NCBI GenBank assembly: GCA_944376845.1
Contig: CALWDZ010000001.1
Span: forward strand, 66,863 to 130,862
Source of the DNA: an uncultured Clostridia bacterium
Lineage (GTDB): Bacteria > Bacillota > Clostridia > Christensenellales > UBA1242
DNA length: 64,000 bases
Direction: 5' to 3'
Made by a program: the position numbers and the translations under genes. Below the pieces are notes generated by a model. The model was not told where the DNA came from. It ran no database searches and was given only the letters and a program-made list of their open reading frames with translations. Position 1 is the stretch's first letter; each line of letters begins with the position of its first letter. Shown here piece by piece: positions 6,001 through 30,675 of this stretch.

Positions 6001-9000
6001 CATCAGAACCAAAGAAATTGATAATAAGTTCATTTCCTTCTAGGATATCCAAATACTTGGTATCTGAAGTTACTTCAACAACAACAGTAAGTTCATCACT
6101 TGCTGAAATAGTTGCACTATTAACCGACGAAACAAGTGAAACTGGTCCATATATTTTTTGAAGTGTAATTGTTTTTTGGGTGTAATCTTTTAAAGATTGT
6201 AGGTTATTTCCGCTTAAGCCTTCAAGATACAAATAGACTTGAAGTGTTGCGCTTTCACCTTCAAAATCTGCCACAACGGTGTGTGTGCCAAGGATTGAAC
6301 CTATAACATATGTGGCATTTTCATTATTTTCATCAACAAAACGCACTGCAAAATTGTTTTGCATGAGTGGGATTTGTCTATCAACAAGAGTAACTATAGA
6401 TGTAAGAGATGATGATAATGTTTCGTTGACTCTTGTTCTAATATTTATGTTAGAAGACTCACCTAAAGTTTGTCCATTGTATGAAAGTGTCAATTCTGAG
6501 GTGTAATATATAACATTGACAGTGACTTGTCTTGTTCCTACAGAATAATCATATCTTGAACTTATTGTAAGTGTGGTTGTTCCGATATTTTTAACAACTA
6601 AGCCATTTGATGTGGTTGAAATAACATTGTTGTTTGAAGATGTTACAATTAAACCACCAAGTGAATATGTGCCAAAAAGGTCACCATATGATATGGTGTT
6701 GATAAGCGTTAAAAGTTGTTGCTCACGGCTTGTGAGATTGACTCCACTTGCACGATAAACAAACATAACTGCTTCATAGCCATTTTGTTCATCACCATTT
6801 TCTGCAAGAGATAATCTTGACTGAGTAATTCTAAGTGATGCCAAGTCTTCACTTGTTATAGCAGAAACTGGTCTTACATTATATAGATAAGGGAAACCAT
6901 AGTTTGCTTCTACATCTTGATTATACCAAATGGCGCTAGATGTGTTCATTCCAACATTTGGATAATTTTGTGTATCTGTACTTGAATAATGCCCTGAAAT
7001 GGTTCTATTTAAATTATTTGTCATGTAATATGTAAACAAAATTTGCCCATCAGTTGATTTTGTGATTGTGTAACTGTCTGAAATTATTGATGATAAACTT
7101 TCGTCTACACCTTCACCAAGTTGTGCATAAAAACCACCAAATTCACCAACATCACCAAATGATTGGTCAATTCGTGTTTGAACACCAGATATGATACCAA
7201 CTATAGCACCCACGCTATTTGAAGATGAAACGCTGTCGGCACTAAAATTGTAGGCATAACTTCTTCTGATAATACCATTGCCAGCAAGTTCTCCGGCTAT
7301 CATACCAACCACAGAACCTTCAAACTTGGTTGTTATATCATTTTGTAAGTTATAGAAAAGCACTTTACTATCTATAATTTGACCATTGTTTACTGCGGCA
7401 ATTCCGCCGACAATGCCATTTGCAGATATATTTCCAACAAATGTTACATTTTCAATAAGTCCTGTATTGGTTTGTACGATACCACCAGCATTACCTTGTG
7501 AATAAGTTACTCCAGAAGACCTTATTTCATTTTCATCCGTGAAAACATCCACTGTCACATTTCGTATTGTTCCAGTGTTGGCATCAACAAGCATTGATGT
7601 AGAATTTACATTACCTACAACTATTAAATCTTCAATTACCGCATTGGCACTAAGTGTACCAAACAAGTTGCTACTATTATTCATAGTAATGGTAGCAACA
7701 GAACTTGCATTTGTTTCAACACTACCGTATAAGCCACCTGTAAATGTACCAAATTTTTGCTCGGCGCCTGAATATGTAACATCATTTAAAAGTACATAAT
7801 GCAAGTTAGCATCTGTCATTTCACTAAAATCAGAGATTCTTAATGCAGTTTCGCGTGATCTGCCGTCAGCGACCAAAATGTCGACTTCGGCATACACATA
7901 TCCGTCACGATAATACTCATGACCATTCTCGTCAGTGAATACGCTATCTTTTGGAATTACCCTAATCTTTCCGCTTCCACCTACAGTTCCTGTGGTAGTA
8001 ATAAGCCCATCGTCACTTATAGATAATATACTACTGAGTGTACCACTATCTGGAATAAATCTATAAACAACATCCCTATTTAGTGCATTTGTAGGCAAAG
8101 CATTTACAGCAAGTTTAAACGATGTAAGCCCAATGTCATCTGTCAAATTTGGTGTCATTAAATATATTCCGTCACTGCTTACATTTCCTATTACAACTTC
8201 TTCAACAAGTTGTGGCTTTTCCATTGAAATTGTTACAGATATTGAATATTCATTTCTATCAAGATTTAAGTCACGAGAAACAAAATTTATTATAGTTGAC
8301 TCAAATTCAGTTTCTCCAATGCCGTCTGTACCGTCATCATTACGCGAAAGTGCACGAACTAAGAATTGATAATCATTAAGTTTTTCAATTTCAAAATTGA
8401 CTACTCCGCCAGGAATGAAATATTGATATAGTCCATTTCCAGCATCGGTCATACCTTCAATTTCAAGCAAATTGTATGTTGGCAATAAAGTTCCGCGATT
8501 GACTGTAAGAGTAATAACCTGTTCTGAAAGTGAAGTATCTCCTTGCCCAAGTTCATCGGCAGCATATAAACTTACTTCTTTGGCATCAATTTCTATAGAT
8601 ATTATAGGGTTATATATTTCAACTAATATATATTTACTAATTTGTATATCTGTATATATGTATTCACCATTACCTTCTGCAATAATCTGTTTACCTGTAA
8701 AGGTTGCTCTTATCCAAACTTTACCTACAGTTATTGGAGAAAGATAACTTAAAGAACGCAAATAATTTGCACTTATTACATTTGAATTGTTGTTTGTAAA
8801 GGCTTCATCTGTTGGACAATTGTTTCCAAAAGTTACATAAGCACCATTTTCGTCATAGACATCGTCATTATTTTCATCATATACATAATCTACAAAATTA
8901 AAAGCAATGCTTTCAATGTCTGTATTCCCAGTAAATGTTAATGGCAAAGATTGACCGTTTTTGAGTGCAACATATACCAAACTATAATCTTCATAGACTA

Positions 9001-10792
9001 GGTTACCAACCGCGGTTGATGTTGAGAAATTAGGGTCAATCCCTATTCTTACATCATTTAAATTATCTATAACATTTACCGTAGCCCGAACTTGTTGACC
9101 CGAAACAAAACTTATGACAAGTTCTCCCGTGCCACTATTGTTTGCTATTATTTCAACTGTGTAAATAGTTGCGCCGTTTAAAGTTTGATTTGTATTTATA
9201 ATTTGCCCAACAGAAAATGCATCGCTTGTGGAGTAAATATCAACAACATTTGCATCTGTTAAGTCAATTGATGTTGGTGCAACGGCAACCTGTACCAAAT
9301 ATGATGAATATTCATCTGTGTCAAGATAAAATTCACGAGTTGATAGCACTCCGTCACCCGCACTATTGACAAAGCCAAGCGATGTAACGCCTTCCAAAAG
9401 AGTAAAAGTTATATTTTTTTCTATATCTACATTTTCTCTTTCACTTCTTACAGTTACTTCGATGGTATCATTAAGAGTAAAACCACTTCTTGCTATAAAA
9501 TAGAAAGTTTCACCACTATCAAATAAATACTGGTTATTTGTAAATTGAATTATGTTGCCACGGCCATCTCTAACTATTACATAATTTTGATCAGCAGCAC
9601 TTATATTTAATGAAAGTTGGTCATTTGTTGCGGTGGCTGGAACTGCTGCAAATGTAAGTGCATAACCTTCAATGTTACCCGTTGAATAAGTTGTGTAAAG
9701 GTTAATTGGACTACTTATATCAACTGGAATTTGGTTATTTGTTATGCTTATATCACGAATTTCATCTATGACGTTTATAATCACTCTGCCGTTTTGACTG
9801 TTTGCAGTAGAATAAACTATATCAGGATAATTTTCGTAACTGAGCAAAAACCATATAGTGTCCTGCCCTAAACTTGAATTTTCCGCCATCAATGTGAAAT
9901 TAAACACATATTCATAATAGGAACCACTATCTACAGGGTAACTAAGTGTATCATCTAATACTATGCCTTTGTCATTGTAGGCAAACTGAGGTACAATGTT
10001 TAACTTTTGTGTAGTTACAGAATATGGCACCCTGACATAAATAGATATTATGCTGTTTGATGTGTTTGTACGCGAGATTTCAATACTATCAAGTTTTGCA
10101 CCGGACTGGTCAACAATCTCAACACTATCAACATCAATTGCATTTATAACATCTATGGTGATGTTGGTTCTAACATTATCTCTATGTGCAGAAACAACCT
10201 CGACGGTGATACTTTCAGGAATATCACTTAGTCCAGGTTGAATTGTTAAAATATTATTTTCAATTGTAACACCCTCTATGGTGTCAACAAGGTTAAATAT
10301 AAGTCCAGTTTGGCTTGTTCCTTCTGGAGATATTGTAAAGAGGTTTTGACTGAGTTCAAATGTGCCACCTAGAGCAGCATCATAGGACATTGCGTATGTA
10401 GTTTGGTTTGGAGTGATTGCAGTAACTGGCAGAGTTGCTGTTACAGTGAAGGCTGTTGATTTCGCAACACCGTTTACCACCACTTCAACATTTTGACAAG
10501 CCCTTAGTGCAGTAACTGTAATTTCACTTACACCATCGCTTGAAGGTCTGCCGACTGATACTTGAATGCTTTGAGAATCATATTGCACAGATACCGCGTT
10601 GTCAGTTGCATTTTGAACTGTTGCATAGATTGTCCCTGTGTTATCATTTTCTCCAAGTACAATTTCAAGTTGCAACGCGCTTAAAGAAATTGTCATGTTG
10701 TCATTGTTCTCTCCACATGCGGACAAAACAACAGCACCACAACCAACTATAAGCATAAGTATCGAAACAAATAAAGTCCTCAGTCTTTTCAT
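1..10792 (-). CDS. Giant surface protein, partial (>3597 aa; C-terminus lies beyond the window start). It has a lipoprotein-type signal peptide, a long Ig-like/beta-sandwich-looking region, and two blocks of ~30-aa G-G-[ILV]-[IVA]-G (GLUG-like, beta-helix-type) repeats.
   Basis: Absent from the supplied ORF track because it has no stop inside the window. The minus-strand ATG is at 10792-10790, with GAGGAG (10800-10805) 7 nt upstream. The N-terminus reads MKRLRTLFVSILMLIVGCGAVVLSACGENN (lipobox-like IVGC/LSAC). In-frame hand translations: 7438-7382 = VGNISANGIVGGIAAVNNG; 478-362 = AVISSNGLDVNLTAQNVNFSSSRIGGLIGYAQSCTFEQI; 58-2 = IAGLLNSGATLTGAESYGD. No terminated minus-strand ORF in this frame is listed anywhere in 1-10792, so the frame must remain open to position 1. 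Confidence 0.85.
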   Translation of the reverse strand, partial: MKRLRTLFVSILMLIVGCGAVVLSACGENNDNMTISLSALQLEIVLGENDNTGTIYATVQNATDNAVSVQYDSQSIQVSVGRPSSDGVSEITVTALRACQNVEVVVNGVAKSTAFTVTATLPVTAITPNQTTYAMSYDAALGGTFELSQNLFTISPEGTSQTGLIFNLVDTIEGVTIENNILTIQPGLSDIPESITVEVVSAHRDNVRTNITIDVINAIDVDSVEIVDQSGAKLDSIEISRTNTSNSIISIYVRVPYSVTTQKLNIVPQFAYNDKGIVLDDTLSYPVDSGSYYEYVFNFTLMAENSSLGQDTIWFLLSYENYPDIVYSTANSQNGRVIINVIDEIRDISITNNQIPVDISSPINLYTTYSTGNIEGYALTFAAVPATATNDQLSLNISAADQNYVIVRDGRGNIIQFTNNQYLFDSGETFYFIARSGFTLNDTIEVTVRSERENVDIEKNITFTLLEGVTSLGFVNSAGDGVLSTREFYLDTDEYSSYLVQVAVAPTSIDLTDANVVDIYSTSDAFSVGQIINTNQTLNGATIYTVEIIANNSGTGELVISFVSGQQVRATVNVIDNLNDVRIGIDPNFSTSTAVGNLVYEDYSLVYVALKNGQSLPLTFTGNTDIESIAFNFVDYVYDENNDDVYDENGAYVTFGNNCPTDEAFTNNNSNVISANYLRSLSYLSPITVGKVWIRATFTGKQIIAEGNGEYIYTDIQISKYILVEIYNPIISIEIDAKEVSLYAADELGQGDTSLSEQVITLTVNRGTLLPTYNLLEIEGMTDAGNGLYQYFIPGGVVNFEIEKLNDYQFLVRALSRNDDGTDGIGETEFESTIINFVSRDLNLDRNEYSISVTISMEKPQLVEEVVIGNVSSDGIYLMTPNLTDDIGLTSFKLAVNALPTNALNRDVVYRFIPDSGTLSSILSISDDGLITTTGTVGGSGKIRVIPKDSVFTDENGHEYYRDGYVYAEVDILVADGRSRETALRISDFSEMTDANLHYVLLNDVTYSGAEQKFGTFTGGLYGSVETNASSVATITMNNSSNLFGTLSANAVIEDLIVVGNVNSTSMLVDANTGTIRNVTVDVFTDENEIRSSGVTYSQGNAGGIVQTNTGLIENVTFVGNISANGIVGGIAAVNNGQIIDSKVLFYNLQNDITTKFEGSVVGMIAGELAGNGIIRRSYAYNFSADSVSSSNSVGAIVGIISGVQTRIDQSFGDVGEFGGFYAQLGEGVDESLSSIISDSYTITKSTDGQILFTYYMTNNLNRTISGHYSSTDTQNYPNVGMNTSSAIWYNQDVEANYGFPYLYNVRPVSAITSEDLASLRITQSRLSLAENGDEQNGYEAVMFVYRASGVNLTSREQQLLTLINTISYGDLFGTYSLGGLIVTSSNNNVISTTSNGLVVKNIGTTTLTISSRYDYSVGTRQVTVNVIYYTSELTLSYNGQTLGESSNINIRTRVNETLSSSLTSIVTLVDRQIPLMQNNFAVRFVDENNENATYVIGSILGTHTVVADFEGESATLQVYLYLEGLSGNNLQSLKDYTQKTITLQKIYGPVSLVSSVNSATISASDELTVVVEVTSDTKYLDILEGNELIINFFGSDGETTTDVIYSGDQEFTEVVNDNGTTTRRYTLTFSLDKTLSSFDSNYTVVFSTNSPSEYDDIRATLALTVLEQEILRVDVNHYAYRGVDNNQEGVSLYNYYPNNVLSPGTTGLLDVMVYPSYANYTHVTVTSEAQNGQALSFLNMRKAGQGYRVNLANTFAYITNGIEIYKVAGSEEVARYYVRVRVPENVEVDTVYTINITVYNGDEVMYTLPYSLIIVPQERAGITVDGQSSIYAIRGETITADVVWDQTQNIRAIEAFDGVISDTNPAVDVTLPSSISDADREEYATSYYRASIDITIGENSGNFRVRVSTSRTINGVEEIVYSYLTIYVIDFELDFTNTHIANGDGTDIATGDQYFYHSLEFNFGGRYIENSDGSLSYSENAYNAFVENNHYQNGDYEINTEGVEFDSEKYPSLVGKYNLLYNLYYVNGNAYTPVSTGRPSDAIVEFIVDSNGDIRFKGTQNGTQRMMLQMRVQMPDLTMYTYSYFFDIVISDPTSDDSPAQISNAEEFMDAINGETEEDYILTSDIYLYNYTPVTDTSMIRSLDGNGYQIIIVGFNYDNTQSQINLSLFNTVSSNTTLKNLRVNVFHVGTIDIRSAFTTTVNVAPIAITNNGIITNCEVVSFRELSNEIAPRVNGINVTVDSTIGVSATTAGFVITNNGIITNSRVGGEEVVEYNYDIVNIDGGYVNTGAVIPSTHILSPFVISSFGEIAGFVYQNSGNGHIVSSYASNMRIINNSNIDYTTITSGFVINNAGLISASYSKGVKQNETDVHAALYGIETSGISAGFVYENSGEINNSYSNITLTNQNDNPGRNSAGFVYRNTATGVIETSLSLSRIIGSTTTQMNFAGVDDYGNYQNLGEISNSYYYDEVSLSDSSILIESAYGEGATYISNITLEDYLYGFSFADRTSENADDGIWVMTNVGPELVSANQIAVSLRYASQTSSDTRPIFTYVDEYQYGSKNNPILIRSAEEFARVFSGTDNSSASRYVNTNSGEIFGSYRLINDIDLSELVTDTNNTYTLASSSMTLTGKYMDQGDGGSIGKFDGNGLTINGLALADPDREAVNFGLFASITDGAIVQNVNLVLGSTNAGGDVFGVEASGVEYVGALAGTVENSKVINVNLTSLYSDSNSVTVRGRNVVGGLIGRVIGDSYIFNLSATDISVTASMNPANYSGSSYISYNTYNRTSDLLNTNVSYAGGVVGVIDVYTESSINIVTYADSEISADGNAIMLKTIGTNIISGGTVGGVVGYVGALTVLQDALYELSYLESTQYSQQGLYSYNGFAGGVVGYNGGYIRQVRSEHEKIWQIGDSDPNDEGDDSIEANIKNYYNGDYTVDRGNTTLFQTTGYTPIAIGGLVGLQVSGKIEKSYSKLNVINTHTNGTNGVYAGGIIGLTESPSSTEPVGTTMIEVYASGDVQSSKIASGIVGFARGDMRLEKVNAINYWGNWLIDSTTNGTAYSIACAEDDVTITGTSNIMALEEDAIKFVTSQADGTSETTPNDRFINNTTITNVSSLPSLKDTISGVGDDGELFDVYFTGNDWDRNSWSRDDNELYPHIVFGYSSNIHYIRDQGDIELLRTANDGDIFVIAPDDSDANETINGVEYIGITSQITPITTFSGMLRGLDNRSEYGFLFKDGVNQTRALFLNTVGATFSNFTIAYDGASFESAGIGQDAVLVANATNTTFTDLTFTSINAEINSSTSRFGLVTGLARGSTTFDNIKIDSSKITLEDEANSTLNLGLVFGDSNLTNGGVYRVTINSSNINFKNLTNISGNSINVGLVGGRLASTSSTTININATSDEDPEGISGSSINFTTSDTTEATNVYGINMGTLFGRADNAVISSNGLDVNLTAQNVNFSSSRIGGLIGYAQSCTFEQIDTSVLINVTAQSSNIGGIVGYALNCNFDTSTDIDISNNGAGINVRNIATAATTDSNNIGGVFGAISGGKLQRESDGNDRHAVQSTVDITVSGSAAQISIGGIAGLLNSGATLTGAESYGD

Positions 10793-11000
10793 AAGCCAAC
10801 TCCTCTTCTATTGTTTTCCAATTTTTGGTTTTTATTATCACATAATAAACCAAATGACATAGTAAGTATAAATATATTTATAAAATGTGTCAAATTTTTT
10901 TAAGACAAAAATTTCCATTTTTTTATTTTTAAAACAAATTTCCGAAAGAAAAAAATATAAAATAATTTAATAAATTTTTTAAAAATATTTTTAAAAAAAT

Positions 11001-11038
11001 AAAATAAAAAAAACATATTTTAACTATGTTAAAATATG
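11001..11038 (-). terminator. Intrinsic terminator downstream of spoIIID
   Basis: Perfect 11-bp inverted repeat CATATTTTAAC-TAT-GTTAAAATATG (11014-11038). On the minus strand it is followed by a long T run (plus-strand A run 11001-11013). Confidence 0.7.
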
Positions 11039-11073
11039 AATTTACAAAAAAATACTAAAAATAAAAAATTATT

Positions 11074-11352
11074 TTAATTATTTTTTAAATATTTATTTCT
11101 TGTTGAAATTCCACCTCTAATGTGTTTTTCGCTAAAGTTTTTGTTTAAAACTTTTTGAACTTCATCAAAAAGACTTGAATTTATTTTTCTTAATTTTTTG
11201 TGAATATCTAAATGCACTGTTGATTTTGAATAACCAAAAAACTTTGCTGTTTGTCTTATAGTCGCGTTATTTGATACAATAAATAACGCAAAATCTAATA
11301 CTCTGTCTTTCTTGTCCACATCCATCTCCTGTAAAAAATGTATGCGGAACAT
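11074..11352 (-). CDS. spoIIID: Stage III sporulation protein D (SpoIIID), small HTH transcription factor
   Basis: ATIRQTAKFFGYSKSTVHLDIHKKL...HIRGGISTRNKY matches the SpoIIID signature (B. subtilis ...EFGVSKSTVHKDL...HLRGGEAT...). The true start is probably internal (ATG 11325 or GTG 11319 just after AGGAG). Confidence 0.85.
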   Translation of the reverse strand: MFRIHFLQEMDVDKKDRVLDFALFIVSNNATIRQTAKFFGYSKSTVHLDIHKKLRKINSSLFDEVQKVLNKNFSEKHIRGGISTRNKYLKNN

Positions 11353-11460
11353 TTACACAATATGTCACATTTTGTCCTATAATGTAACTAGCATAATAAA
11401 AATTTAAACAAGTGCTTTACAAAAAAAAAATTAGGTGTTATGATATAAACGGCAAAATTT

Positions 11461-11706
11461 ATGGAGGATAATATGACACTAGACAAAGTAAAATCTCTTA
11501 TCGCTTCTCAACTAGGTATAAGCGAAGATAAAATAACTGAGGACTCAAGGCTTATTGAAGACCTTGGTGCTGATTCTCTTGACACAGTTGAAATGCTTAT
11601 GACACTAGAAGAAGAATTTGGAATCGCGATACCAGATGAAGAAGCAATGGCACTTACAACCGTTAAGTCAATTGTTGATCTTATAGACAAACACCAAAAT
11701 GCATAA
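11461..11706 (+). CDS. acpP: Acyl carrier protein
   Basis: LGADSLDTVEMLMTLEEEFG contains the DSL phosphopantetheine-attachment motif. The size is typical at ~77 aa. GGAGG lies 6 nt before the ATG at 11473, which is the likely true start. Confidence 0.85.
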   Translation: MEDNMTLDKVKSLIASQLGISEDKITEDSRLIEDLGADSLDTVEMLMTLEEEFGIAIPDEEAMALTTVKSIVDLIDKHQNA

Positions 11707-11711
11707 TAAAA

Positions 11712-11736
11712 AAACCCTGTTTAAAGGGTTTTTTTA
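11712..11736. terminator. Bidirectional hairpin terminator between acpP and the M23 peptidase gene
   Basis: AAACCCT-GTTTAA-AGGGTTT stem-loop (11712-11731), flanked by an A run upstream and a T run downstream. Confidence 0.7.
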
Positions 11737-12336
11737 TTTGTCCTCAAGGGTAAGATAGTTTGAAGGGTCTACTTTTTGTCCATCTTTGTAAAGTTCAAAA
11801 TGAAGGTGAGCACCGCTTAATAATTCATTTGCAGATGATTCGCTCATTGTACCTATAACATCGCCAGCATTAACTGTATCTGATATGGTTACACTTGTTT
11901 CATCACTAAGTGAAGAATATTTACTTACATATCCTCCTTCGTGAGTGATTGTTATACAAGTTCCATCTTCATATGTTGTTTGCACATCTGTGACAACACC
12001 ATCTAATACAGAGTAAACATTTAAGTTTTCGCTAGTCATGTCAATTCCCTTATGGCTCTCCCATTGCTTTAATGTTTCATTGTAAAATAATTCTGAGTCA
12101 CTATACCATTTAAGTACTGTTGGTGATTCAACAGGCAAACCAAACACCACAGGTGTAGTATCTGATGGCACAGTTGGTTCTTCTGGTGATTGTGCAGTAC
12201 TTGCAAATACAACCGCAAGCGTTATACCAAGCACCAAAACAAATGCAAGTGCATAATAACCATATTTTTTTAGTACTCTTTTTACCCTTCCCTTTTTATT
12301 TGTTTCCATTTTAACCTCCGCACAAATTGTTGACAT
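11734..12336 (-). CDS. Membrane-anchored M23/LytM metallopeptidase, SpoIIQ-like by position
   Basis: TM segment YYALAFVLVLGITLAVVFA. M23 metal-binding motifs HKGIDM (HxxxD) and GAHLHFEL (HxH) are intact. GGAGG precedes the ATG at 12309 (METNKKG...), the likely start. It lies next to spoIIID, as spoIIQ does in clostridial spoIID-spoIIQ-spoIIID clusters. Confidence 0.7.
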   Translation of the reverse strand: MSTICAEVKMETNKKGRVKRVLKKYGYYALAFVLVLGITLAVVFASTAQSPEEPTVPSDTTPVVFGLPVESPTVLKWYSDSELFYNETLKQWESHKGIDMTSENLNVYSVLDGVVTDVQTTYEDGTCITITHEGGYVSKYSSLSDETSVTISDTVNAGDVIGTMSESSANELLSGAHLHFELYKDGQKVDPSNYLTLEDK

Positions 12337-12370
12337 CTTTTTTACTTGTTATACCTATAAATTTTAAAAT

Positions 12371-12859
12371 TTAATAACTGCCAAGAAGAAGTGGTGTGCC
12401 AATGAAAATTTTTTGACCGTCAAAGTAGCCTTGAACATTTACTTTTTTATCGTAAGCATGCACACCGCCATCAAAATAATTTGTATATCCTAAAAAGTCC
12501 GTGTCCCCACTTTTGACAATTTTGACATTAAGTTTATCAAGACAATCGAGATAAGTTTGTTTATCACCAGTGAATATAAAGGTAACGCCACTAACATCAT
12601 TTAAGTTTGATTCAAGCAATTTATAATCAGCATAGGTGCAAGAAATTATTTGACCCATACCATTTGCGGTAACGACAATGCTTCCACTGTTTTCAAGTTG
12701 AGGTGTACTTGTAAATATCTGTACATTCAAATTGTCATATATTGAAAAATCAAACTCACGTTTATAAAGCGACGCCGTAAATAAAAAGACACACAAAACA
12801 AAAAAGACAATAAATTTTTTCATATCAAATTTATTGCCTTTTATTTTTATTTTATACAA
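12371..12859 (-). CDS. YwmB-like (DUF1779-type) membrane-anchored protein
   Basis: N-terminal TM segment (FIVFFVLCVFLFTASL). The C-terminal ...VNVQGYFDGQKIFIGTPLLLGSY resembles the YwmB family end ...NLQIAL...VTVGTPIVTTEY as I remember it. The likely start is the ATG at 12823 (MKKFIVFF). Confidence 0.4.
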   Translation of the reverse strand: MYKIKIKGNKFDMKKFIVFFVLCVFLFTASLYKREFDFSIYDNLNVQIFTSTPQLENSGSIVVTANGMGQIISCTYADYKLLESNLNDVSGVTFIFTGDKQTYLDCLDKLNVKIVKSGDTDFLGYTNYFDGGVHAYDKKVNVQGYFDGQKIFIGTPLLLGSY

Positions 12860-12862
12860 TTT

Positions 12863-14062
12863 TTACATTACATTACATATTCCTATTCCGCCCATAAGTG
12901 ACACAACATAGTTATTATCACAAACAAATGGCAAAATTGAAAATGATGTAAACATATCTTTTATCTTTGGCAAACTAAAACTAAAGACATTTTCATATCG
13001 TTTAATTGTTTTCATCATTTCCCGCATTTCATCCAATCTTTTTTGTGTCTGATACAAAAACTCTTCCTTTAAATTGTTTAAGCGAAGCAAAATGTCTTTT
13101 TGTGACAAAATATTGTTAAAAAATGCAAAATTATGTATTTTTTTATAAAAAATCGCATATTTTTTAATATTTTTTGCTATTTTTGGAAAATTTGGTACTT
13201 CAAGTTGTTTAATTTTCTTTTGAGAAAATAAATTTTTATAAGTCAAAAATAATAGTTCTGTCGAAAGCAAAAACATCTCCCCAGTGCCAACAATTTGACC
13301 ATTTTCATTATTTATTTTATTCATTATTAAATATAAATTAAATAAAGACAAACCAAAAATATCAATATCTTTTAAATTTTCCGCAACATCAATTAAGATA
13401 TCCATAAGAATAAGTTTACTATCGCCCTCTCCTGTCATTATGCCAGCAAGTTCGTTTTTTAATTTAGAAATATCTTTTGATAACTCGTTAAATCGCATTT
13501 CTTTATCCAATAAAATATGTTCAATTTGCTCATCACACAAGAGTTCACTTAATGACATCACGAAATACACACCTTGCTTAACCAAAAATTTTGGCGTTGT
13601 TTTTATAACACTTTCTTGTATGTACACTTTTTCAGCAGCATCACACACAAAACTTCTTGTACTATCATATGGGTTAACGCAAATATTATTGAAATATGTA
13701 ATGGAACTGCATGCCGAAGGACAAACAAAATAAGGCACACAAAATATATTGGCAAAATATTTTGTGACATCACAAGTTCTTCCTGCCCCAAAACAAATGA
13801 ATAAGTCAAAACCTTCCATAGTAAGCATTTCGCTAAGCGATTTTAATTCCATAGCACTAAAATTATGCTTTGCAATAAAATATTTAAATTCGCATCCAGC
13901 CATTGAAACTGCACTCATAATCTCGGTTAAATGGCTGTTTGTCACGCTTTTTGTTGTGATTATAAATACTTTTTTATTATAATATTTGCTTTGCAAATCA
14001 AATTTCATATCATCAAATGCATTTTTTTTGTAGACTATATTATCATTCATTTTTAACCTCAA
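12863..14062 (-). CDS. Divergent iron-ADH / glycerol-(1-)phosphate dehydrogenase-like family protein
   Basis: FICFGAGRTCDVTKYFA resembles the GGGSxxDxxK nucleotide-binding motif of the Fe-ADH/GldA/AraM superfamily. The length (~395 aa) fits that family. The likely start is the ATG at 14050, behind GAGG. Confidence 0.45.
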   Translation of the reverse strand: MRLKMNDNIVYKKNAFDDMKFDLQSKYYNKKVFIITTKSVTNSHLTEIMSAVSMAGCEFKYFIAKHNFSAMELKSLSEMLTMEGFDLFICFGAGRTCDVTKYFANIFCVPYFVCPSACSSITYFNNICVNPYDSTRSFVCDAAEKVYIQESVIKTTPKFLVKQGVYFVMSLSELLCDEQIEHILLDKEMRFNELSKDISKLKNELAGIMTGEGDSKLILMDILIDVAENLKDIDIFGLSLFNLYLIMNKINNENGQIVGTGEMFLLSTELLFLTYKNLFSQKKIKQLEVPNFPKIAKNIKKYAIFYKKIHNFAFFNNILSQKDILLRLNNLKEEFLYQTQKRLDEMREMMKTIKRYENVFSFSLPKIKDMFTSFSILPFVCDNNYVVSLMGGIGICNVM

Positions 14063-24156: not shown

Positions 24157-27036
24157 TTATAAAACCTTTTTTAAATATAGTCCAGTGTAACTACCTTTTA
24201 TGTTGCTAACCTGTTCTGGAGTTCCTGTTGCAATAACCTTACCACCTTGGTTTCCACCCTCTGGCCCTAGGTCGATGATATAATCGGCACATTTTATGAC
24301 ATCCAAATTGTGCTCTATTACAACAACTGTATTATTATTTTGCACTAGTTTTTGCAAAATTGCAATAAGTTTTTTTACATCGTAACTACTAAGTCCCGTT
24401 GTAGGTTCATCCAAAATATATATCGTTTTGCCCGTGGAACGCTTTGCAAGTTCGGTTGCAAGTTTAACTCTTTGTGCCTCACCGCCACTAAGTTCTGTAG
24501 CTGGTTGACCAAGTTTTATATAGGAAAGTCCAACATCATAAAGTGCTTTTACTTTGGTGTAAATGCTTGGAATATTTTCAAAAAATGACAATGCTTCTTC
24601 AACCGTCATGTCAAGCACATCGGCAATACTCTTGCCCTTGTATTTGACTTCCAGTGTTTCATGGTTATATCTTTTACCCTTACAAACCTCACATGGAATA
24701 GTTATGTCTGGCAAAAAGTACATTTCAATTTCTTTTACTCCTGCGCCCTCACATGCTTCACATCTTCCGCCCTTAATATTAAAACTAAATCTTCCTGAAG
24801 TATAACCACGAGCCTTGGCATCGGGAGTTTTGGCAAAAAGGTCACGAATAGGTGTCCAGAGCCCAGTGTAAGTGGCCGGATTACTCCTTGGAGTTCTTCC
24901 TATTGGCGCTTGGTCGATGTTTATTACCTTGTCGAGTTTATCTATATTTTTTATTTCTTTAAAATCGCCAAGTATTTGACTTGCACCATTAAGGTCATTG
25001 GCAAGTTTTGGATAAAGTACGCCATTTATCAAACTACTTTTTCCGCTTCCACTGACGCCTGTAATACAAGTAAACACACCAAGTGGAATGTTAACGTCAA
25101 TATTTTTTAAATTGTTTTGTTTTGCACCTTTTACAGTAAGAAAATCTTTAGGCTGACGCCTAAGCGAAGGTACTTCAATTTTCTCTTTGCCACTTAAAAA
25201 TTTCCCTGTTATAGAACTTTCACAAGCCATTATATCCTTTGGAGTTCCTGTTGCGACAATTTGACCGCCATGAACACCAGCATATGGTCCAACATCAACT
25301 ATAAAGTCTGCGCTTTTAATTGTGTCTTCGTCATGCTCAACAACAATAAGTGTATTGCCAAGGTCTTTTAAATGTTTGAGTGTGGCAAGAAGTTTGTCAT
25401 TATCACGTTGATGAAGCCCTATACTTGGCTCATCCAAAATATACAAAACACCAACTAGTCCACTGCCTATTTGTGTCGCTAGGCGTATTCTTTGGCTTTC
25501 TCCACCACTAAGTGTTTCAGCACTGCGTGAGAGAGTTAAATAACCAAGTCCAACATCAATCAAGAAATTAAGTCTTGCTTTTATTTCTTTTAGTATTGGT
25601 TCGCTAATTTTCTTTTCAGTTTCATCAAATGTTATTTTGTCAAGATATTCACATAAATCAACTACACTCATATTGCTCATTTCAATTATGTTTTTGCCGT
25701 CAATTTTGACAGATAGTGCAGATTGGTTTAATCTTTGACCGTGGCACACCTTGCATGGCAATTCCTTCATAAGTCTGCCGATTTCGTATTTAACAAACTC
25801 GCTTGTGCTTTCTTTATATCTTCGTCTTAAATTGTTTATTATACCTTCAAATGAAACATTAAAACTTCCGCTTGATGTGGAGTTTTTATATTCCATTCTT
25901 AATTTTTCCCCGCCGTTGCCATAAAGAATAAGATCAAGTTTTTCTTTTGGCAAATCTTTTACTGGAATATCAAGGTCTAGGCCATAATGTTTATGCAAAA
26001 GGTCAAAATACATACCCGCCATAGTGCTTTTGTCACCACTCCAACCAGCAATTTTAAACGCACCTTCACGAATGGACATATGTGAATTTTTGAGTACAAG
26101 TTTTTCATCTATATCTTCGGTATAGCCAATACCTGTGCAATTTGGACAAGCACCATAAGGGTTGTTAAACGAAAACATTCTTGGGGTTATTTCTTCAAGT
26201 GTCCAACCACAATCTGGACAAGCAAAAAGCGTGCTATATAAAACCTTTTCGTCACCAGAAGATATTGTACAAAGCCCTTCACCCAGTTTAACTGCATTTT
26301 CTATACTTTCAGCAAGTCTACGCTTTGCCTCAGGTTTTATAACAAGCCTGTCCACAACAACATAAATTGTATGTTTTTTGTTTTTATCAAGTTTTATTTC
26401 TTCATCCAAAGTATAAATTATATCGTCAACTTCCACCCTGACATAGCCACTCTTTTTGAGTTTTTCAAATAACTTTTCTTGTGCACCCTTTTGGGCACGA
26501 ACAACTGGTGCCATAACCATAATTTTACTACCTTCTGGCATTACCATAACTTTGTCAACTATTTGGTCTATAGTTTGCTTTTTAATCGGTTTGTTACAAT
26601 TTGGACAATAAGGTGTACCTATCCTTGAATATAATAGTCTTAAATAGTCATATATCTCAGTTATAGTTCCAACTGTTGAACGTGGGTTATGGTTGGTGGT
26701 CTTTTGGTCAATGGAAATAGCAGGACTAAGCCCGGAAATTTGGTCAACATCGGGTTTTTGACTTTGCCCCAGAAATTGACGCGCATAAGATGACAAAGAT
26801 TCTATATATCTTCTCTGCCCTTCTGCAAAAATGGTGTCAAAAGCAAGAGTGCTTTTGCCACTGCCACTAACTCCAGTAAATACAACAAATTTGTTTCTTG
26901 GAATGTCGACATCAATATTTTTTAAATTGTTCTCACGCGCACCGCGTACTTTAATAAAATCATCCATAATTTTTATTATACCACTTTTTTTTGTAAATTT
27001 AAAGTCTTTATATACAAAAAATGCTCTATTTTGCAT
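24157..27036 (-). CDS. uvrA: Excinuclease ABC subunit A
   Basis: Two ABC modules ([25 protein letters not shown]; [24 protein letters not shown]) and zinc modules (CPNCNK..., CEACEGAG...CEVCKGKRY). The likely true start is the ATG at 26967 ([18 protein letters not shown]). Confidence 0.97.
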
Positions 27037-27134
27037 ATTATAAAATTTAGAAAATTAAATCATACAAATTTTTAGGAGGCTTAAAATTCAATATTGATTT
27101 TTTCTATAAACTATGGTAACATAAAACAAAAGAG

Positions 27135-28466
27135 GTGGCTATGAGTAAAGAGTTTGAAACAGGAAATTACGAATATGCCGTTATTGACTTACACAACCAC
27201 AGTTCTTATTCGGAAGAATATCCAAAAACAACATTTAACGAAGTAGAAATGTTAGAATATTTTGAACAAGTTGCAGAAAAAGCAAAACAAAAAGTTTGTT
27301 TTTCTGTAACAGACCATGACACCGCACTTGGTGCGTTTATGGTTTATAAAGAACTAATGAAAAATAAAGATAAATATCCCCTTGTAGATTTTGTCCCTGG
27401 CATGGAACTCAATATGTCACTTGAAAGAGTTGCTATGTATAATGATGGCGTATTAAAAGACCCAAGTTTTGTATTTAAAAAATGTCATATGCTCATTCAT
27501 GCAAAAGAAGGTAGAGAAGAAGAATTTTTTAAGCGAACATTTCTTTATTCCACACTAGCACATAAAAAAATTAGCGTAAAAAATCGTGCAAACAGTAAAA
27601 TAATAAATATTGGCAAACAAATCCTTGCTGCAAGAAATAAACTTAACGAAGTATATTCCATAAGAATTCCTCTCGGCATTTATCGTGATTGTGCATCTGA
27701 TAATAATTTTAGCAGTATTAGAGCAACATTTCTAAACAAAACTATTGAATTTTTGTTTGTGCATGAAAAAATCATCGATGAAACTTTTGCAGAAGAAGAA
27801 ATTAAAAGAATTATAGAAAGATTATTTCCAGATTATCCAACATATATTGATGATTTTGGATATTATGGAAGGTTTAGCGTATTTGATTTAAAGCCAATAT
27901 TTGATGATTGTGCAACATTTTGCTATGCTCACCCACAAACATTATCTTTTAAAAAATTTACTAAAATACCAGTTAAACTATTTAAAAATGTTGACATTTC
28001 AACATTGCCCAGAACTATCCAACAAAAAATCAAAGCCAAACTTAATGACAGATATGAATTTGAAAATGGATATTTCTCGCAACAAGACATACTTTTTTCT
28101 GGTGGAATTTATGGCGACCAATCAGGCCTTGTAAAATTGCAATTACTCCACAATCAACTTCAAAAATATGGCATCAAAATTGACGGTTATGAACTAACTC
28201 CAAAAACCGCAACTTATAAACACAAACACTATACCCTAGAAACCATAGCCGATACTGTAGTTGACAAAATGCATCTACTACTAAACTTTGGCACAGACAA
28301 ACATTATGACAATGCAGACAAAATGCTAATGCAATACAATGATACTAGATATTACGAAACAAATAAAAGGACAAAAGAAAATCCATACTTAAAATATAAC
28401 AGACTAAATAGACAACTCACAAATGATGAAAATAGTTTCACCATAGGTGTTGAATTGGAAAGATAA
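27135..28466 (+). CDS. PHP-domain (polymerase/histidinol-phosphatase family) metal-dependent phosphoesterase with a large internal insert
   Basis: PHP motifs occur in order: IDLHNHSSYS, SVTDHDT, MELNM, HMLIHAKEG, CYAHPQ, GTDKHY. The likely start is the ATG at 27141, behind AAGAGG. It is transcribed divergently from uvrA. Confidence 0.7.
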   Translation: MAMSKEFETGNYEYAVIDLHNHSSYSEEYPKTTFNEVEMLEYFEQVAEKAKQKVCFSVTDHDTALGAFMVYKELMKNKDKYPLVDFVPGMELNMSLERVAMYNDGVLKDPSFVFKKCHMLIHAKEGREEEFFKRTFLYSTLAHKKISVKNRANSKIINIGKQILAARNKLNEVYSIRIPLGIYRDCASDNNFSSIRATFLNKTIEFLFVHEKIIDETFAEEEIKRIIERLFPDYPTYIDDFGYYGRFSVFDLKPIFDDCATFCYAHPQTLSFKKFTKIPVKLFKNVDISTLPRTIQQKIKAKLNDRYEFENGYFSQQDILFSGGIYGDQSGLVKLQLLHNQLQKYGIKIDGYELTPKTATYKHKHYTLETIADTVVDKMHLLLNFGTDKHYDNADKMLMQYNDTRYYETNKRTKENPYLKYNRLNRQLTNDENSFTIGVELER

Positions 28467-28468
28467 AG

Positions 28469-29314
28469 ATGGGAAAATATAAAGATAAAAAACATTTATA
28501 TAATAGTGACATGGCTCGTATAAGCAATAGACAAAGTGCTATACTTAAATTTTACGACCAGCCTGAACTTGCAAAACAAGAAGCCCTTGAAAAACTTAAA
28601 AGTTTAGGGCTAGAAAATGTACTAGATGACTATTTCTTGCCGGATAATTATAACCTTGACAAACTTAAAAATCTTGAAATAAATACTCCAAGACTGCAAA
28701 TTGTCAAACTTCCTTTTAAAAACCAAGATATAAAAATCATGCTCGATATGCCTAAAATACAAATTTCAACGCCAAAAATTGAACACTCAATGGGAAAAAC
28801 TTATCATAGCGTTTATTTGATTGGAAAATATAAAGATAAAAAAATGGTTTACCTTTTAAGTGTTGAATACGCAAGAGAACAAAAAAGACCGCCTTGTGAT
28901 TTTCATATAAAACTTGATGCGTTAGTTGGTGGCAAAACTTGGTTTTCGCTTATGAGAATTGACTCAATGGGAAATCCACATCCAAATTATTTTGAAAACG
29001 GCGTTCCAGTAAAAAACTATAATGAAGTCAAAAAAATAAGAACCCCTCACCTTCACACCGCTAGTTATGAAGCCCAGATGTTTACAAACACAACACATTA
29101 TTCAAATGCTGAAGAATTAGATTTTTTAGACTACGAAAATATAAATTTTGAAGATGGCACACTTTTTACAAGTCTTATGCAAACATTTTTAAAAAAATGC
29201 AATGCAGAAGTAAATATAAAAGATGTAGCGGGCTCTTGGTTTGATTTTGATAATACAAATATTTTTGACACAAAAATAATAGATAATGATGAGGTAATAA
29301 ATTGGATTTTGTAA
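28469..29314 (+). CDS. Hypothetical protein with a possible His-Me/HNH-like finger in its C-terminal half
   Basis: A 2-nt gap separates it from the PHP gene. GKYKDKK occurs at residues 2-8 and again at ~119-125. The C-terminal half has RIDSMGNPHPNYFENGVPVKNYNEVKKIRTPHLHTASYE, reminiscent of HNH ...N-x-IR-x-TP-x-x-H...H. I recognise no family with confidence. Confidence 0.5.
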   Translation: MGKYKDKKHLYNSDMARISNRQSAILKFYDQPELAKQEALEKLKSLGLENVLDDYFLPDNYNLDKLKNLEINTPRLQIVKLPFKNQDIKIMLDMPKIQISTPKIEHSMGKTYHSVYLIGKYKDKKMVYLLSVEYAREQKRPPCDFHIKLDALVGGKTWFSLMRIDSMGNPHPNYFENGVPVKNYNEVKKIRTPHLHTASYEAQMFTNTTHYSNAEELDFLDYENINFEDGTLFTSLMQTFLKKCNAEVNIKDVAGSWFDFDNTNIFDTKIIDNDEVINWIL

Positions 29315-29634
29315 AATGTCTTGAAAATGTAAAAAATCAATATGAAATTTATAATGAAAATAAAGATTTTTTCTGCGTTGATTGTAATAAATTATTGACT
29401 GATTATGAATATATTTTTATTGCAATAAAAAATGTAAATGGAAATGCAGTTATTTGTGACTTTGCAAATAACTTACAAAATCTAAATATTTCAGAAGAAA
29501 AAATAAAAGAAATTTGCAAGAAATATGATGTAATTTTCAATGATTATAATTTATCAAAAATATATAATTCAAACAATGATTTAACACAATATATAAATTG
29601 CATTTTAGAATTATCAAAAAAATCATCCTATTAG
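29302..29634 (+). CDS. Hypothetical small protein (110 aa), third gene of the PHP operon
   Basis: It overlaps the preceding gene by 13 nt. It is very AT-rich and shows no recognisable motif. Its stop codon lies inside the terminator hairpin. Confidence 0.45.
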   Translation: MDFVKCLENVKNQYEIYNENKDFFCVDCNKLLTDYEYIFIAIKNVNGNAVICDFANNLQNLNISEEKIKEICKKYDVIFNDYNLSKIYNSNNDLTQYINCILELSKKSSY

Positions 29635-29647
29635 GATGATTTTTTTA
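29614..29647. terminator. Hairpin terminator closing the PHP operon, with bidirectional geometry
   Basis: AAAAAATCATCC-TATTA-GGATGATTTTTT: A run, 7-bp GC-containing core stem, then T run. Confidence 0.75.
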
Positions 29648-29669
29648 ACTTTGTTTTCTGTCGATAACG

Positions 29670-30419
29670 CTAATAGAATGACACTTTACTAAATTTGCAG
29701 AAACTTGGAATTCGGAAAGTGTTCCACTGGTCTTTGGCTATCTTTGACATATAAAAGTTATTGACTTTTCTTATTCGTGAATAAGCGGACTGTAAACTAC
29801 AAAATATAGTTCCCTTTGACTTTTTCACAAACTGTGCCTTTGAACTTGAAATAATTTTCTTTTTTAACATTGTTGATTTTACAAAATCTGCTAAAATTAT
29901 TGTAATCAAAAACAATGCTTCTATTCCATCCTCAAAAGCACTGGCATATGCCATAACCATTATGTCATAAACTACCAGAAGCGCATTTGGCAAAACATAC
30001 ACTAACCTTATTGATTTTACATCATCAATATAAAGAGCGAATGTATACCAAATATAACTTGCAAGAGGAATAATATCCCAAGCACTGTTCCATGTCATCG
30101 CACCTGCCACAATAAACATAACAATAAATACAGATGCTATGATTTTAGGCAGTTTTTTGTTTCTTTTTTCGAAATAATACACGAAAAAGAATTGCAAACA
30201 TGACAATAGTGCTATGGCTCCTGCACTCCAAGACCCTACAAACAGAAATGACATTCCATACATAATATCGCCAAACAGTCCCATTAGCAAAAAGCCCTTT
30301 TTACTTTTTACCACATAGGATAAACACAAAATCAAAGTCGCTATTCCGCCAAAAATTTGAGCAAAAATAAAATAGACATTTGACATATTAAATATGAAAA
30401 TAACCTCTGTTCGCCACAA
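29670..30419 (-). CDS. YgjV-family (Imp-YgjV) inner-membrane protein with an odd basic C-terminal extension
   Basis: FAQIFGGIATLILCLSYVVKSKKGFLLMGLFGDIMYGMSFLFVGSWSAGAIALLSCLQFF... matches the YgjV architecture. The TTG start at 30419 has GAGG 7 nt upstream. The last ~70 aa are Lys/Ser-rich and unlike the family. Confidence 0.55.
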   Translation of the reverse strand: MWRTEVIFIFNMSNVYFIFAQIFGGIATLILCLSYVVKSKKGFLLMGLFGDIMYGMSFLFVGSWSAGAIALLSCLQFFFVYYFEKRNKKLPKIIASVFIVMFIVAGAMTWNSAWDIIPLASYIWYTFALYIDDVKSIRLVYVLPNALLVVYDIMVMAYASAFEDGIEALFLITIILADFVKSTMLKKKIISSSKAQFVKKSKGTIFCSLQSAYSRIRKVNNFYMSKIAKDQWNTFRIPSFCKFSKVSFY

Positions 30420-30640
30420 ATATTAGCCTCATTCTCATAGACTGACTTGTAACACTTATTACGTCCGCCAACGACCTTTTTAATTACAAGCCCCACTTGT
30501 TAAATGAGAATTTGTGACTTAGATTTCTTGCAAAGCAAGATTGGTCAAGACAATCGTGACATTACTCTAGCCATTTTTAAGGTTAAACGGCTTTTCAAGT
30601 TAACAGTCCTTTACGAGCAACATAAATCTATGCCTGACCT
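30420..30640 (-). promoter_or_regulatory. ~220-nt untranslated leader; candidate structured RNA or riboswitch of unidentified class
   Basis: No ORF is present. Two minus-strand helices each need a G-U pair, which would be a C-A mismatch on the plus strand: GGUCAGG (30639-30633) with CUUGACC (30549-30543), and AGGACUG..ACUUG (30610-30596) with CAAGUCAGUCU (30449-30439). I could not match any riboswitch consensus I know. Confidence 0.25.
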
Positions 30641-30646
30641 ATAAAT

Positions 30647-30675
30647 ATTATATAATATAAATATTACTTTTGCAA
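30647..30675 (-). promoter_or_regulatory. Sigma-A-type promoter candidate for the ygjV-like gene leader
   Basis: Minus strand: TTGCAA (30675-30670), a 17-nt spacer, then TATAAT (30652-30647). Confidence 0.5.

Follow-up and report, generated by a model that had tools for sequence, protein, structure and literature searches.

A compact operon of three genes, designated here g1, g2 and g3, lies between uvrA and uvrB in a 64,000-nt stretch of DNA from an uncultured Clostridia bacterium (contig CALWDZ010000001.1; hereafter the window, to whose positions all coordinates refer unless a relative is named). The g1 gene encodes a predicted PHP enzyme, g2 a protein apparently related to DUF6978, and g3 a small acidic protein. 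The operon is fixed in the chromosomes of one small group of gut Clostridia without cultured members, and it is neither a recognized defence system nor a mobile element. We consider it, with a probability of roughly 0.55, to be a chromosomally fixed and vertically inherited composite operon of a small clade of these bacteria near Christensenellales. Loci and contigs of relatives are denoted by L-codes (L001, L019, etc.).

Distribution and origin of the operon

Close homologues of g1 and g2 (56–100% identity) were found in one shared arrangement on every sufficiently long contig. In this arrangement, mfd, pth, a hexapeptide-repeat (LbH) gene, a DnaJ-like gene and uvrA are placed on one strand and g1-g2-g3 on the other, followed by uvrB, two small open reading frames (ORFs) and valS. 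The same organization is present in five GTDB species representatives labelled as uncultured Clostridia. The complete trio is restricted to a single clade of approximately genus rank and always occupies the same locus.

Deeper lineages carry uvrA, g2-g3 and uvrB, without g1 (L041, L049 and L046). The UvrA proteins encoded there are 82, 81 and 64% identical to that of the window, respectively, and the UvrB proteins of L049 and L046 are 83 and 68% identical. In L042, g2 occurs alone, without g3. Distant homologues of g1 whose contexts were fetched (35–42% identity) are found solo at a conserved uppP/g1/degV-radC-glyS locus of Christensenellales-like metagenome-assembled genomes. Because the deeper relatives carry only g2-g3 at uvrA, and the g1 homologues stand alone at the uppP-degV locus, the trio is composite and vertically inherited: an old g2-g3 pair beside uvrA received the PHP gene in one clade of about genus rank, and the three genes do not move as a unit.

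The databases of mobile elements were also searched. By tblastn, neither the 50,697 phage records nor the 72,556 plasmid records yielded a relative of g1 or g2, and a pattern scan of IMG/VR returned no relative of g2.

An earlier sequence-only reading of this DNA had proposed a candidate defence or DNA-processing module. A mobile or defence-island nature is not supported, given the identical locus in all trio carriers, the host-like composition described below and the lack of relatives of g1 and g2 in the phage and plasmid collections. The earlier reading had also treated the trio as a unit. The three genes do co-occur in other genomes, but only g2 and g3 travel together in deeper lineages, and g1 is solo in sister lineages. 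As to the further possibility that these might be ordinary housekeeping genes, universally present at this position and of known annotated function, the universal presence in the lineage was found, but the annotated function was not.

The distribution suggests the following history. In an ancestor, a coupled g2-g3 pair would have become inserted between uvrB and uvrA in reverse orientation, and it would have stayed there, diverging quickly. Subsequently, g1, a stand-alone housekeeping-type gene in sister lineages, would have moved ahead of the pair in the clade of about genus rank. A single putative promoter of sigma-70 type would now serve all three genes.

Away from uvrA, a g2-g3 pair was found in L047 only (7185–13246; also in L048). 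The pair is followed there by a gene for a GNAT-like protein of 165 aa, and lies ∼2 kb from NUDIX and TIR/TPR genes. This neighbourhood comprises the NUDIX gene (PADLOC PDC-S07, E = 1e-7), a PNP_UDP_1 gene (weak match to an "Effector" model) and a gene encoding an 802-aa TIR_2/TPR protein, and it may be a defence neighbourhood.

Organization and composition of the operon

Three plus-strand ORFs were listed between uvrA and uvrB, divergent from uvrA (Table 1). Direct reading of the sequence showed a gap of 2 nt between g1 and g2 and an overlap of 13 nt between g2 and g3. Position, gap, overlap and divergence from uvrA are exactly as the sequence-only reading had described them, and the compact, presumably co-transcribed trio splits the usual uvrB-uvrA pair. 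The length of 443 aa given there for the g1 product corresponds to an alternative start at GTG 27135. A GAGGTGG sequence precedes the ATG at 27141, and therefore the product is 441 aa long.

Table 1. Features of the operon and the adjoining regions
Feature	Position	Strand	Characteristics	Product
uvrA promoter-like site	26975–27003	-	TTTAAA, 17 nt, TG-extended TATAAT (promoter scan)	
Putative operon promoter	27094–27122	+	-35 TTGATT (27094–27099), 17-nt spacer, -10 TAACAT (27117–27122), TG before -10	
Gene 1 (g1)	27141–28466	+	ATG start after GAGGTGG Shine-Dalgarno	441 aa
Gene 2 (g2)	28469–29314	+		281 aa
Gene 3 (g3)	29302–29634	+	TTG start six bases after GAGG	110 aa
Terminator hairpin	29616–29646	+	14-bp stem between A run and T run	
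ygjV-like membrane protein gene	29670–30419	-	Pfam Imp-YgjV, E = 9e-22	

In L001, L003, L007, L010 and L021, the pattern ATATTGATTTTTGT...TGnTA(A/G)CAT lies equally far from the start codon, and this conservation points to the corresponding site of the window as the operon promoter. The site scored 8/12, which is under the threshold of the promoter scanner. A small leader ORF starting at TTG 27094 was considered and rejected, since this TTG belongs to the conserved -35 box.

The hairpin that had been reported to close the operon was confirmed, with a free energy of -14.3 kcal/mol (z = -3.96 vs shuffled sequences). L019, the closest relative, has a hairpin with another sequence at the corresponding place after g3. 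This structure could act as a bidirectional terminator, for g3 and for the convergent ygjV-like gene. No Rfam family was matched within 26500–31000.

The segment had also been described as more A+T-rich than the flanking uvr genes. The GC content of g1 and g2 (0.30) is indeed lower than that of uvrA and uvrB (0.37). However, the window mean is 0.326, values of 0.305–0.313 were obtained for mfd, the LbH gene and the DnaJ-like gene, and of 0.25–0.26 for unnamed neighbouring ORFs. Relative to neighbours of the g1/g2 type, uvrA, uvrB and valS are the only GC-richer genes, and the GC content at third codon positions (GC3) of g1 and g2 (0.21–0.22) is host-like. The A+T-richness therefore holds in relation to uvrA and uvrB, but not in relation to the window mean or the other neighbours.

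g1 encodes a predicted PHP phosphoesterase

The g1 product was matched by the Pfam PHP family (PF02811) over its N-terminal half only (E = 2e-3; 18.8 bits vs a gathering score of 26.4). There was no match in NCBIfam and nothing meaningful in PHROGs or PADLOC; the sole hit in PADLOC-DB v2, to PtuB (E = 3e-3), was judged noise-like. Sequence and profile searches of the PDB matched no chain. A word-indexed search of 5.8 billion proteins identified homologues in 12 clusters, and the family is confined to a few Clostridia lineages.

In 12 homologues, with identities down to 35%, the PHP ligands H18, H20, D58, H59, E89, H116, H120, H264, D386 and H388 are invariant, and the three-metal-site motif set (HxH, DH, E, H, H, DxH) is complete in g1. 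The AlphaFold2 (AF2) model of the protein (predicted local distance difference test [pLDDT] 87.7, predicted TM-score [pTM] 0.88) was compared with known structures using Foldseek. The best matches were RNase AM of V. cholerae (9etk, E = 7e-9), BAD_1165 (3o0f) and the Pol III alpha PHP domain, and that of E. coli RNase AM (7ug9) was matched as well; the Foldseek probability was 1.00 for 9etk, 3o0f, 7ug9 and 4iqj. Large inserts keep the TM-scores to RNase AM at modest values (0.34 and 0.52). Two regions are enlarged, at approximately residues 121–258 (∼140 aa) and 266–383 (∼120 aa). The insert contains conserved Arg and Lys residues, among them the invariant R165. Apart from the length of the protein, the PHP motifs and the large inserts noted in the sequence-only reading were fully borne out.

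RNase AM is a three-metal PHP enzyme in which the 5′ phosphate is bound by an insertion domain; it works as a 5′–3′ exo/diribonuclease and also on pAp (PMC9410882, PMC11528712). Going by the modeled fold and the invariant ligands, the g1 product is a divergent, enlarged PHP phosphoesterase of the RNase AM/TrpH (YciV) type, with a presumed activity of this kind. Named members of this type are the RNases AM of E. coli and V. cholerae, Cv1693 of C. violaceum and BAD_1165 of B. adolescentis. Like RNase AM, the g1 product has the full PHP ligand set, a matching predicted barrel and an insertion that follows the fourth motif (PMC9410882). Members of this type are ∼280–290 aa long with one ∼70-aa insertion domain, whereas in the 441-aa g1 product the insertion is about twice as long, and a second large insert precedes DxH.

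The g1 product would most likely be a three-metal RNase AM/TrpH-like enzyme that trims 5′-phosphorylated short oligonucleotides or dephosphorylates pAp-like nucleotides. It would extend the RNase AM/TrpH-type PHP nucleases into Clostridia, as an enlarged two-insert form, and may hint at short-oligonucleotide or pAp degradation in these uncultured gut bacteria.

The PHP domain is also common to g1 and Ppl, which was reportedly described by Gao et al. in 2020 as a single-gene defence system composed of PHP plus ATPase. Unlike Ppl, g1 has no ATPase domain and no PADLOC Ppl match, and its context is chromosomally fixed, not patchy.

The three proteins might be accessory factors of nucleotide excision repair or the DNA-damage response, tied to UvrA and UvrB and processing, for example, excised oligonucleotides or damaged ends. 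We regard this role as quite improbable. It is true that g2-g3 stay adjacent to and divergent from uvrA down to 64% UvrA identity, and removal of the excised 12–13-nt fragments would be a plausible task for a PHP enzyme that degrades oligonucleotides or acts as a 5′–3′ exonuclease. However, no LexA (Cheo) box was found in the intergenic region shared by uvrA and g1, the g1 homologues of sister lineages are not near repair genes, and the occurrences in L047 (the pair away from uvr genes) and L042 (g2 solo) also speak against a tie to UvrAB. Moreover, genes may stay neighbours within one related group simply because synteny is inherited, and the great majority of UvrABC-bearing bacteria lack the family. 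A composite operon inherited at a fixed locus remains our preferred reading of this synteny.

g2 encodes a distant relative of DUF6978

The word-indexed search placed the close homologues of g2 in six clusters only (56–98% identity). An exhaustive profile search of 1.8 billion proteins yielded a family of 56 representatives, most of them 260–300 aa long and matching over the full length. A third homologue search, with a 46-sequence profile, gave almost no additions, and a metagenome scan with the g2 profile returned the already-known locus only. In the 46-sequence alignment, residues K96, R163, D165, H171, H194 and H196 are invariant, and P82, G155, W158, N173 and P193 nearly so. The GNPHPN and TPHLH motifs hold invariant residues and represent the conserved core of this 46-member family.

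A stretch of 25–75 residues of the g2 profile was also matched seven times in each of the proteins P0060, P0069 and P0070 (613–2068 aa). These were set aside because only a G-K-T-W/D-S-x-G stretch was covered; they probably contain Asp-box-like (GxTW/DSxG) repeats and are probably not homologous.

The g2 product was matched by DUF6978 (PF22398) with E = 1.8e-4 over profile positions 2–132 of 133, at 22.2 bits vs a cut-off of 29.6. The same family was matched by 22 of the 46 relatives (best E = 3.9e-7). The PADLOC model PDC-M24A gave a sub-threshold match to g2 (E = 1.3e-3) and weak matches to 17/46 relatives (best E = 6.5e-6). Judged by these profile matches, g2 appears to encode a distant relative of DUF6978/PDC-M24A, and not a member by the Pfam rule. 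The PDC systems are unpublished, untested candidates (PMC11811056). In the literature, nothing was found on PDC-M24, and DUF6978 was found in passing mentions only, with no tested function.

The likeness to DUF6978 concerns the core of the g2 product (residues 84–245), which aligns across the whole profile, with about half of the relatives matching too. The conserved histidines fit a putative metal site mentioned for DUF6978 (10.64898/2026.05.15.725322). The g2 product differs from DUF6978 in having twice the length; it includes an N-terminal stretch of ∼80 aa that is helical, and a C-terminal tail. A further difference from both DUF6978 and PDC-M24A is the pairing with g3, which has no counterpart in PADLOC or Pfam.

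The structural model of the g2 product, built from seven sequences (pLDDT 71.8, pTM 0.75), has helices in its N-terminal region and a core formed by an antiparallel beta-sheet. H194 and H196 are located on a predicted strand (194–197), which is followed by a low-confidence loop. Foldseek comparison with the PDB gave nothing significant (best E = 0.48; cystatin, NTF2-like and Tim21-like folds) and no nuclease. Among viral models (BFVD), a single borderline match was obtained, to a 154-aa uncharacterized siphovirus protein (E = 2.5e-3). Sequence and profile searches of the PDB returned nothing credible for g2.

The sequence-only reading had compared the C-terminal half of the g2 product to a His-Me/HNH nuclease finger. 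This comparison is not supported: no HNH or His-Me Pfam family was matched at E ≤ 1, no nuclease was present among the Foldseek PDB matches, and H194 and H196 form an HxH pair that a model of moderate confidence places on a strand. A beta-beta-alpha-metal finger has its catalytic His on a strand, and the helix after it carries the metal ligands. The likeness to His-Me/HNH proteins such as colicin E9 is superficial, consisting of a His, ∼23 residues and then (I/V)R(T)TP..H..H. In an HNH finger the histidines are one helical turn apart on a helix, whereas those of g2 are arranged as HxH on the predicted strand.

The simplest reading of the invariant residues is a putative His3/Asp metal site with Lys and Arg nearby. 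The g2 product would then be a long form of the DUF6978-like fold, whose six invariant residues may build a metal-dependent hydrolytic or ligand-binding site.

g3 and its pairing with g2

No credible match for g3 was found in family scans (Pfam, NCBIfam, PHROGs-type) or in sequence and profile searches of the PDB, and PADLOC-DB v2 gave no match. Weak scattered hits to Pkip-1, KH_DUF2096_C and DUF1828 were judged to be noise. The earlier statement that g2 and g3 match no characterized family therefore stands. The g3 product is acidic (pI 4.8), and residues D53, A55, N57, Q59, C72, K74, N89, D93, Y97 and C100 are invariant in homologues of seven lineages.

Homologues of g3 were identified directly after the g2 homologues in L041, L046, L047 and L049 (hidden Markov model E-values from 7e-12 to 2e-48). 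Six divergent lineages were examined outside the trio clade, and in five of them g3 follows g2. In all five lineages that have both genes, including the non-uvr context of L047, the two overlap by 11–13 nt or abut. The 13-nt overlap in the window makes translational coupling likely. From the conserved overlap, the g3 product is probably a small acidic partner of the g2 product, bound in a fixed ratio.

In L041 (2185–4285), tandem g2 paralogues (294 and 282 aa) precede the g3 homologue, next to uvrA. The extra g2 copy sits where g1 sits in the window.

Such a pair could be a toxin-antitoxin-like or toxin-immunity addiction module, in which g2 would encode a toxic metalloenzyme and g3 its acidic inhibitor, loss being lethal, with g1 as an unrelated neighbour in the transcript. 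The conserved overlap or abutment of a two-gene cassette and the small acidic partner are in keeping with this explanation, as are the insertion of the cassette into an operon in reverse orientation, its quick evolution and the presence of g2-g3 at a different locus in L047. However, family scans revealed neither a DNA-binding antitoxin domain nor a known toxin family in g2 or g3, and the presence of g2 without g3 in L042 amounts to a toxin without its antidote, which is unexpected. In addition, the pair is present in a single copy at a fixed locus where seen, and g2 was not found in the plasmid or phage collections. We consider an addiction pair very doubtful.

Evolutionary rates and the conflict-system alternative

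The rates of divergence were examined using four species-level relatives with complete loci (L001, L003, L007 and L010). UvrA is 88–93% and UvrB 91–95% identical to the proteins of the window (the L001 contig lacks uvrB). The products of g1, g2 and g3 are 56–75% identical, a level comparable to that of the DnaJ-like protein and Mfd. In the closest relative, L019, UvrB is 99% and the g1–g3 products are 89–93% identical. The ratios of nonsynonymous to synonymous substitution rates (dN/dS) are 0.19 for g1, 0.15 for g2 and 0.22 for g3, compared to 0.04 for uvrB; g1–g3 are thus genuine genes, on which selection is purifying but relaxed. Between the deeper lineages, the identity of g2 and g3 drops to 31–40%, at UvrA identities of 81–82%.

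Several points weigh against an ordinary, vertically inherited operon with the functions proposed above. The divergence of g2 and g3 is far faster than that of their neighbours (31% vs 81% for UvrA), a behaviour that conflict genes show more typically than housekeeping genes do. The model of the g2 product is of moderate confidence, and a fold relationship could have been missed. The g1 product stays under the Pfam gathering score for PHP, and its modest TM-scores and large inserts may mean that its substrate specificity differs from that of RNase AM. Finally, the functional link of g1 to g2-g3 comes solely from the fusion into an operon in one clade.

The quick divergence relative to neighbours raises the question of an anti-phage or conflict module, in which the g2 product would be a sensor or effector restrained by g3, the PHP nuclease would have been recruited in this clade as an extra effector, and the uvrA-uvrB interval would be a hotspot of integration between conserved core genes. 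Besides the divergence, the repeated sub-threshold PDC-M24A matches are in line with such a module, as are the tandem duplication of g2 in L041, the variable slot beside g3 (described below), the location of the sole non-uvr pair near a TIR/TPR protein and a PDC-S07-like NUDIX gene, and the single weak structural match to a siphovirus protein.

On the other hand, no component was matched at the curated threshold. The PADLOC check suggested in the sequence-only reading gave sub-threshold matches only: a noise-like hit for g1, a model without published tests for g2, and no Ppl. Defence genes are typically gained and lost in a patchy manner, whereas here the carriers have the same locus across UvrA identities of 64–93%, the g2-g3 pair of L047 being the one exception. 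GC3 is host-like. Copies were absent from the phage and plasmid collections (g1 and g2) and from viral contigs (g2), and the other genes of the slot are not defence-like, being ygjV-like, cyclophilin-like or ORFs of no known function. A conflict module is thus unlikely. The same low probability is assigned to its more specific form, namely that g2-g3 are a new two-component conflict or immunity system, made of a fast-evolving DUF6978-like metal-dependent effector and a small acidic regulator. The pair would have become anchored at uvrA-uvrB in gut Christensenellales-like Clostridia and would have acquired, in one clade, an RNase AM-like PHP nuclease as its third part. If this were true, it would provide the first functional context for DUF6978 and PDC-M24.

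Under the favoured explanation of a fixed composite operon, our working proposal is that a g2-g3 complex would have nucleic acid or nucleotides as its target, producing or binding 5′-phosphorylated nucleic-acid fragments, and that the g1 enzyme would clear these. The finding neither opens nor settles a major question, and currently gives no support to a new defence mechanism. It does reveal a compact conserved gene pair around a DUF6978-like domain with an apparent His3/Asp site, and the long stay of g2-g3 in a split uvrB-uvrA unit offers a concrete handle for experiments.

Neighbouring genes

The interval between g3 and uvrB is variable. In the window, this slot (29670–30709) contains the ygjV-like gene and a 290-nt spacer. 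The ygjV-like gene is absent in L019, L003 and L010, and other genes are present instead in L007, L046 and L049. The corresponding slots are located at 2545–2597 in L019, where it is empty, 9298–10125 in L007, 2173–3189 in L046 and 9216–9734 in L049; in relatives other than L019 the slot contains a 275-aa ORF, a 338-aa ORF or a cyclophilin-like gene. The GC3 of the ygjV-like gene is 0.31, compared to ∼0.2 in its neighbours. This gene had been listed among those separating uvrA from uvrB, which is correct for the window, but it is outside the conserved module and, being absent in the closest relative, is not a fixed part of the interval.

On the other side of the operon, the TATAAT-type promoter-like site of uvrA ends 7 nt before the likely start codon of this gene, ATG 26967 (M24 of the long ORF). 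Homologues align to the long uvrA ORF only from approximately residue 24. A TGnTATAAT sequence is kept 6–9 nt before the uvrA ATG in L001, L003, L007, L021, L041 and L046 (compared by hand), and no Shine-Dalgarno sequence precedes ATG 26967. This arrangement suggests that the uvrA mRNA is leaderless, with a promoter of its own now that uvrB and uvrA are split.

Further away, a 122-aa ORF at 34331–34699 on the minus strand (MALYCHSERSEESL...) is probably spurious and would be antisense to a gene for a 77-aa XRE/HTH_3-type regulator (34341–34574, plus strand). An HTH gene was also called near valS in L007. Downstream of uvrB, at 32671–34169 on the minus strand, there are three small ORFs (120, 147 and 219 aa) that have no Pfam family. 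The 120- and 147-aa ORFs are kept with uvrB in all relatives (76–100% identity for the 120-aa product), and represent another lineage-specific set.

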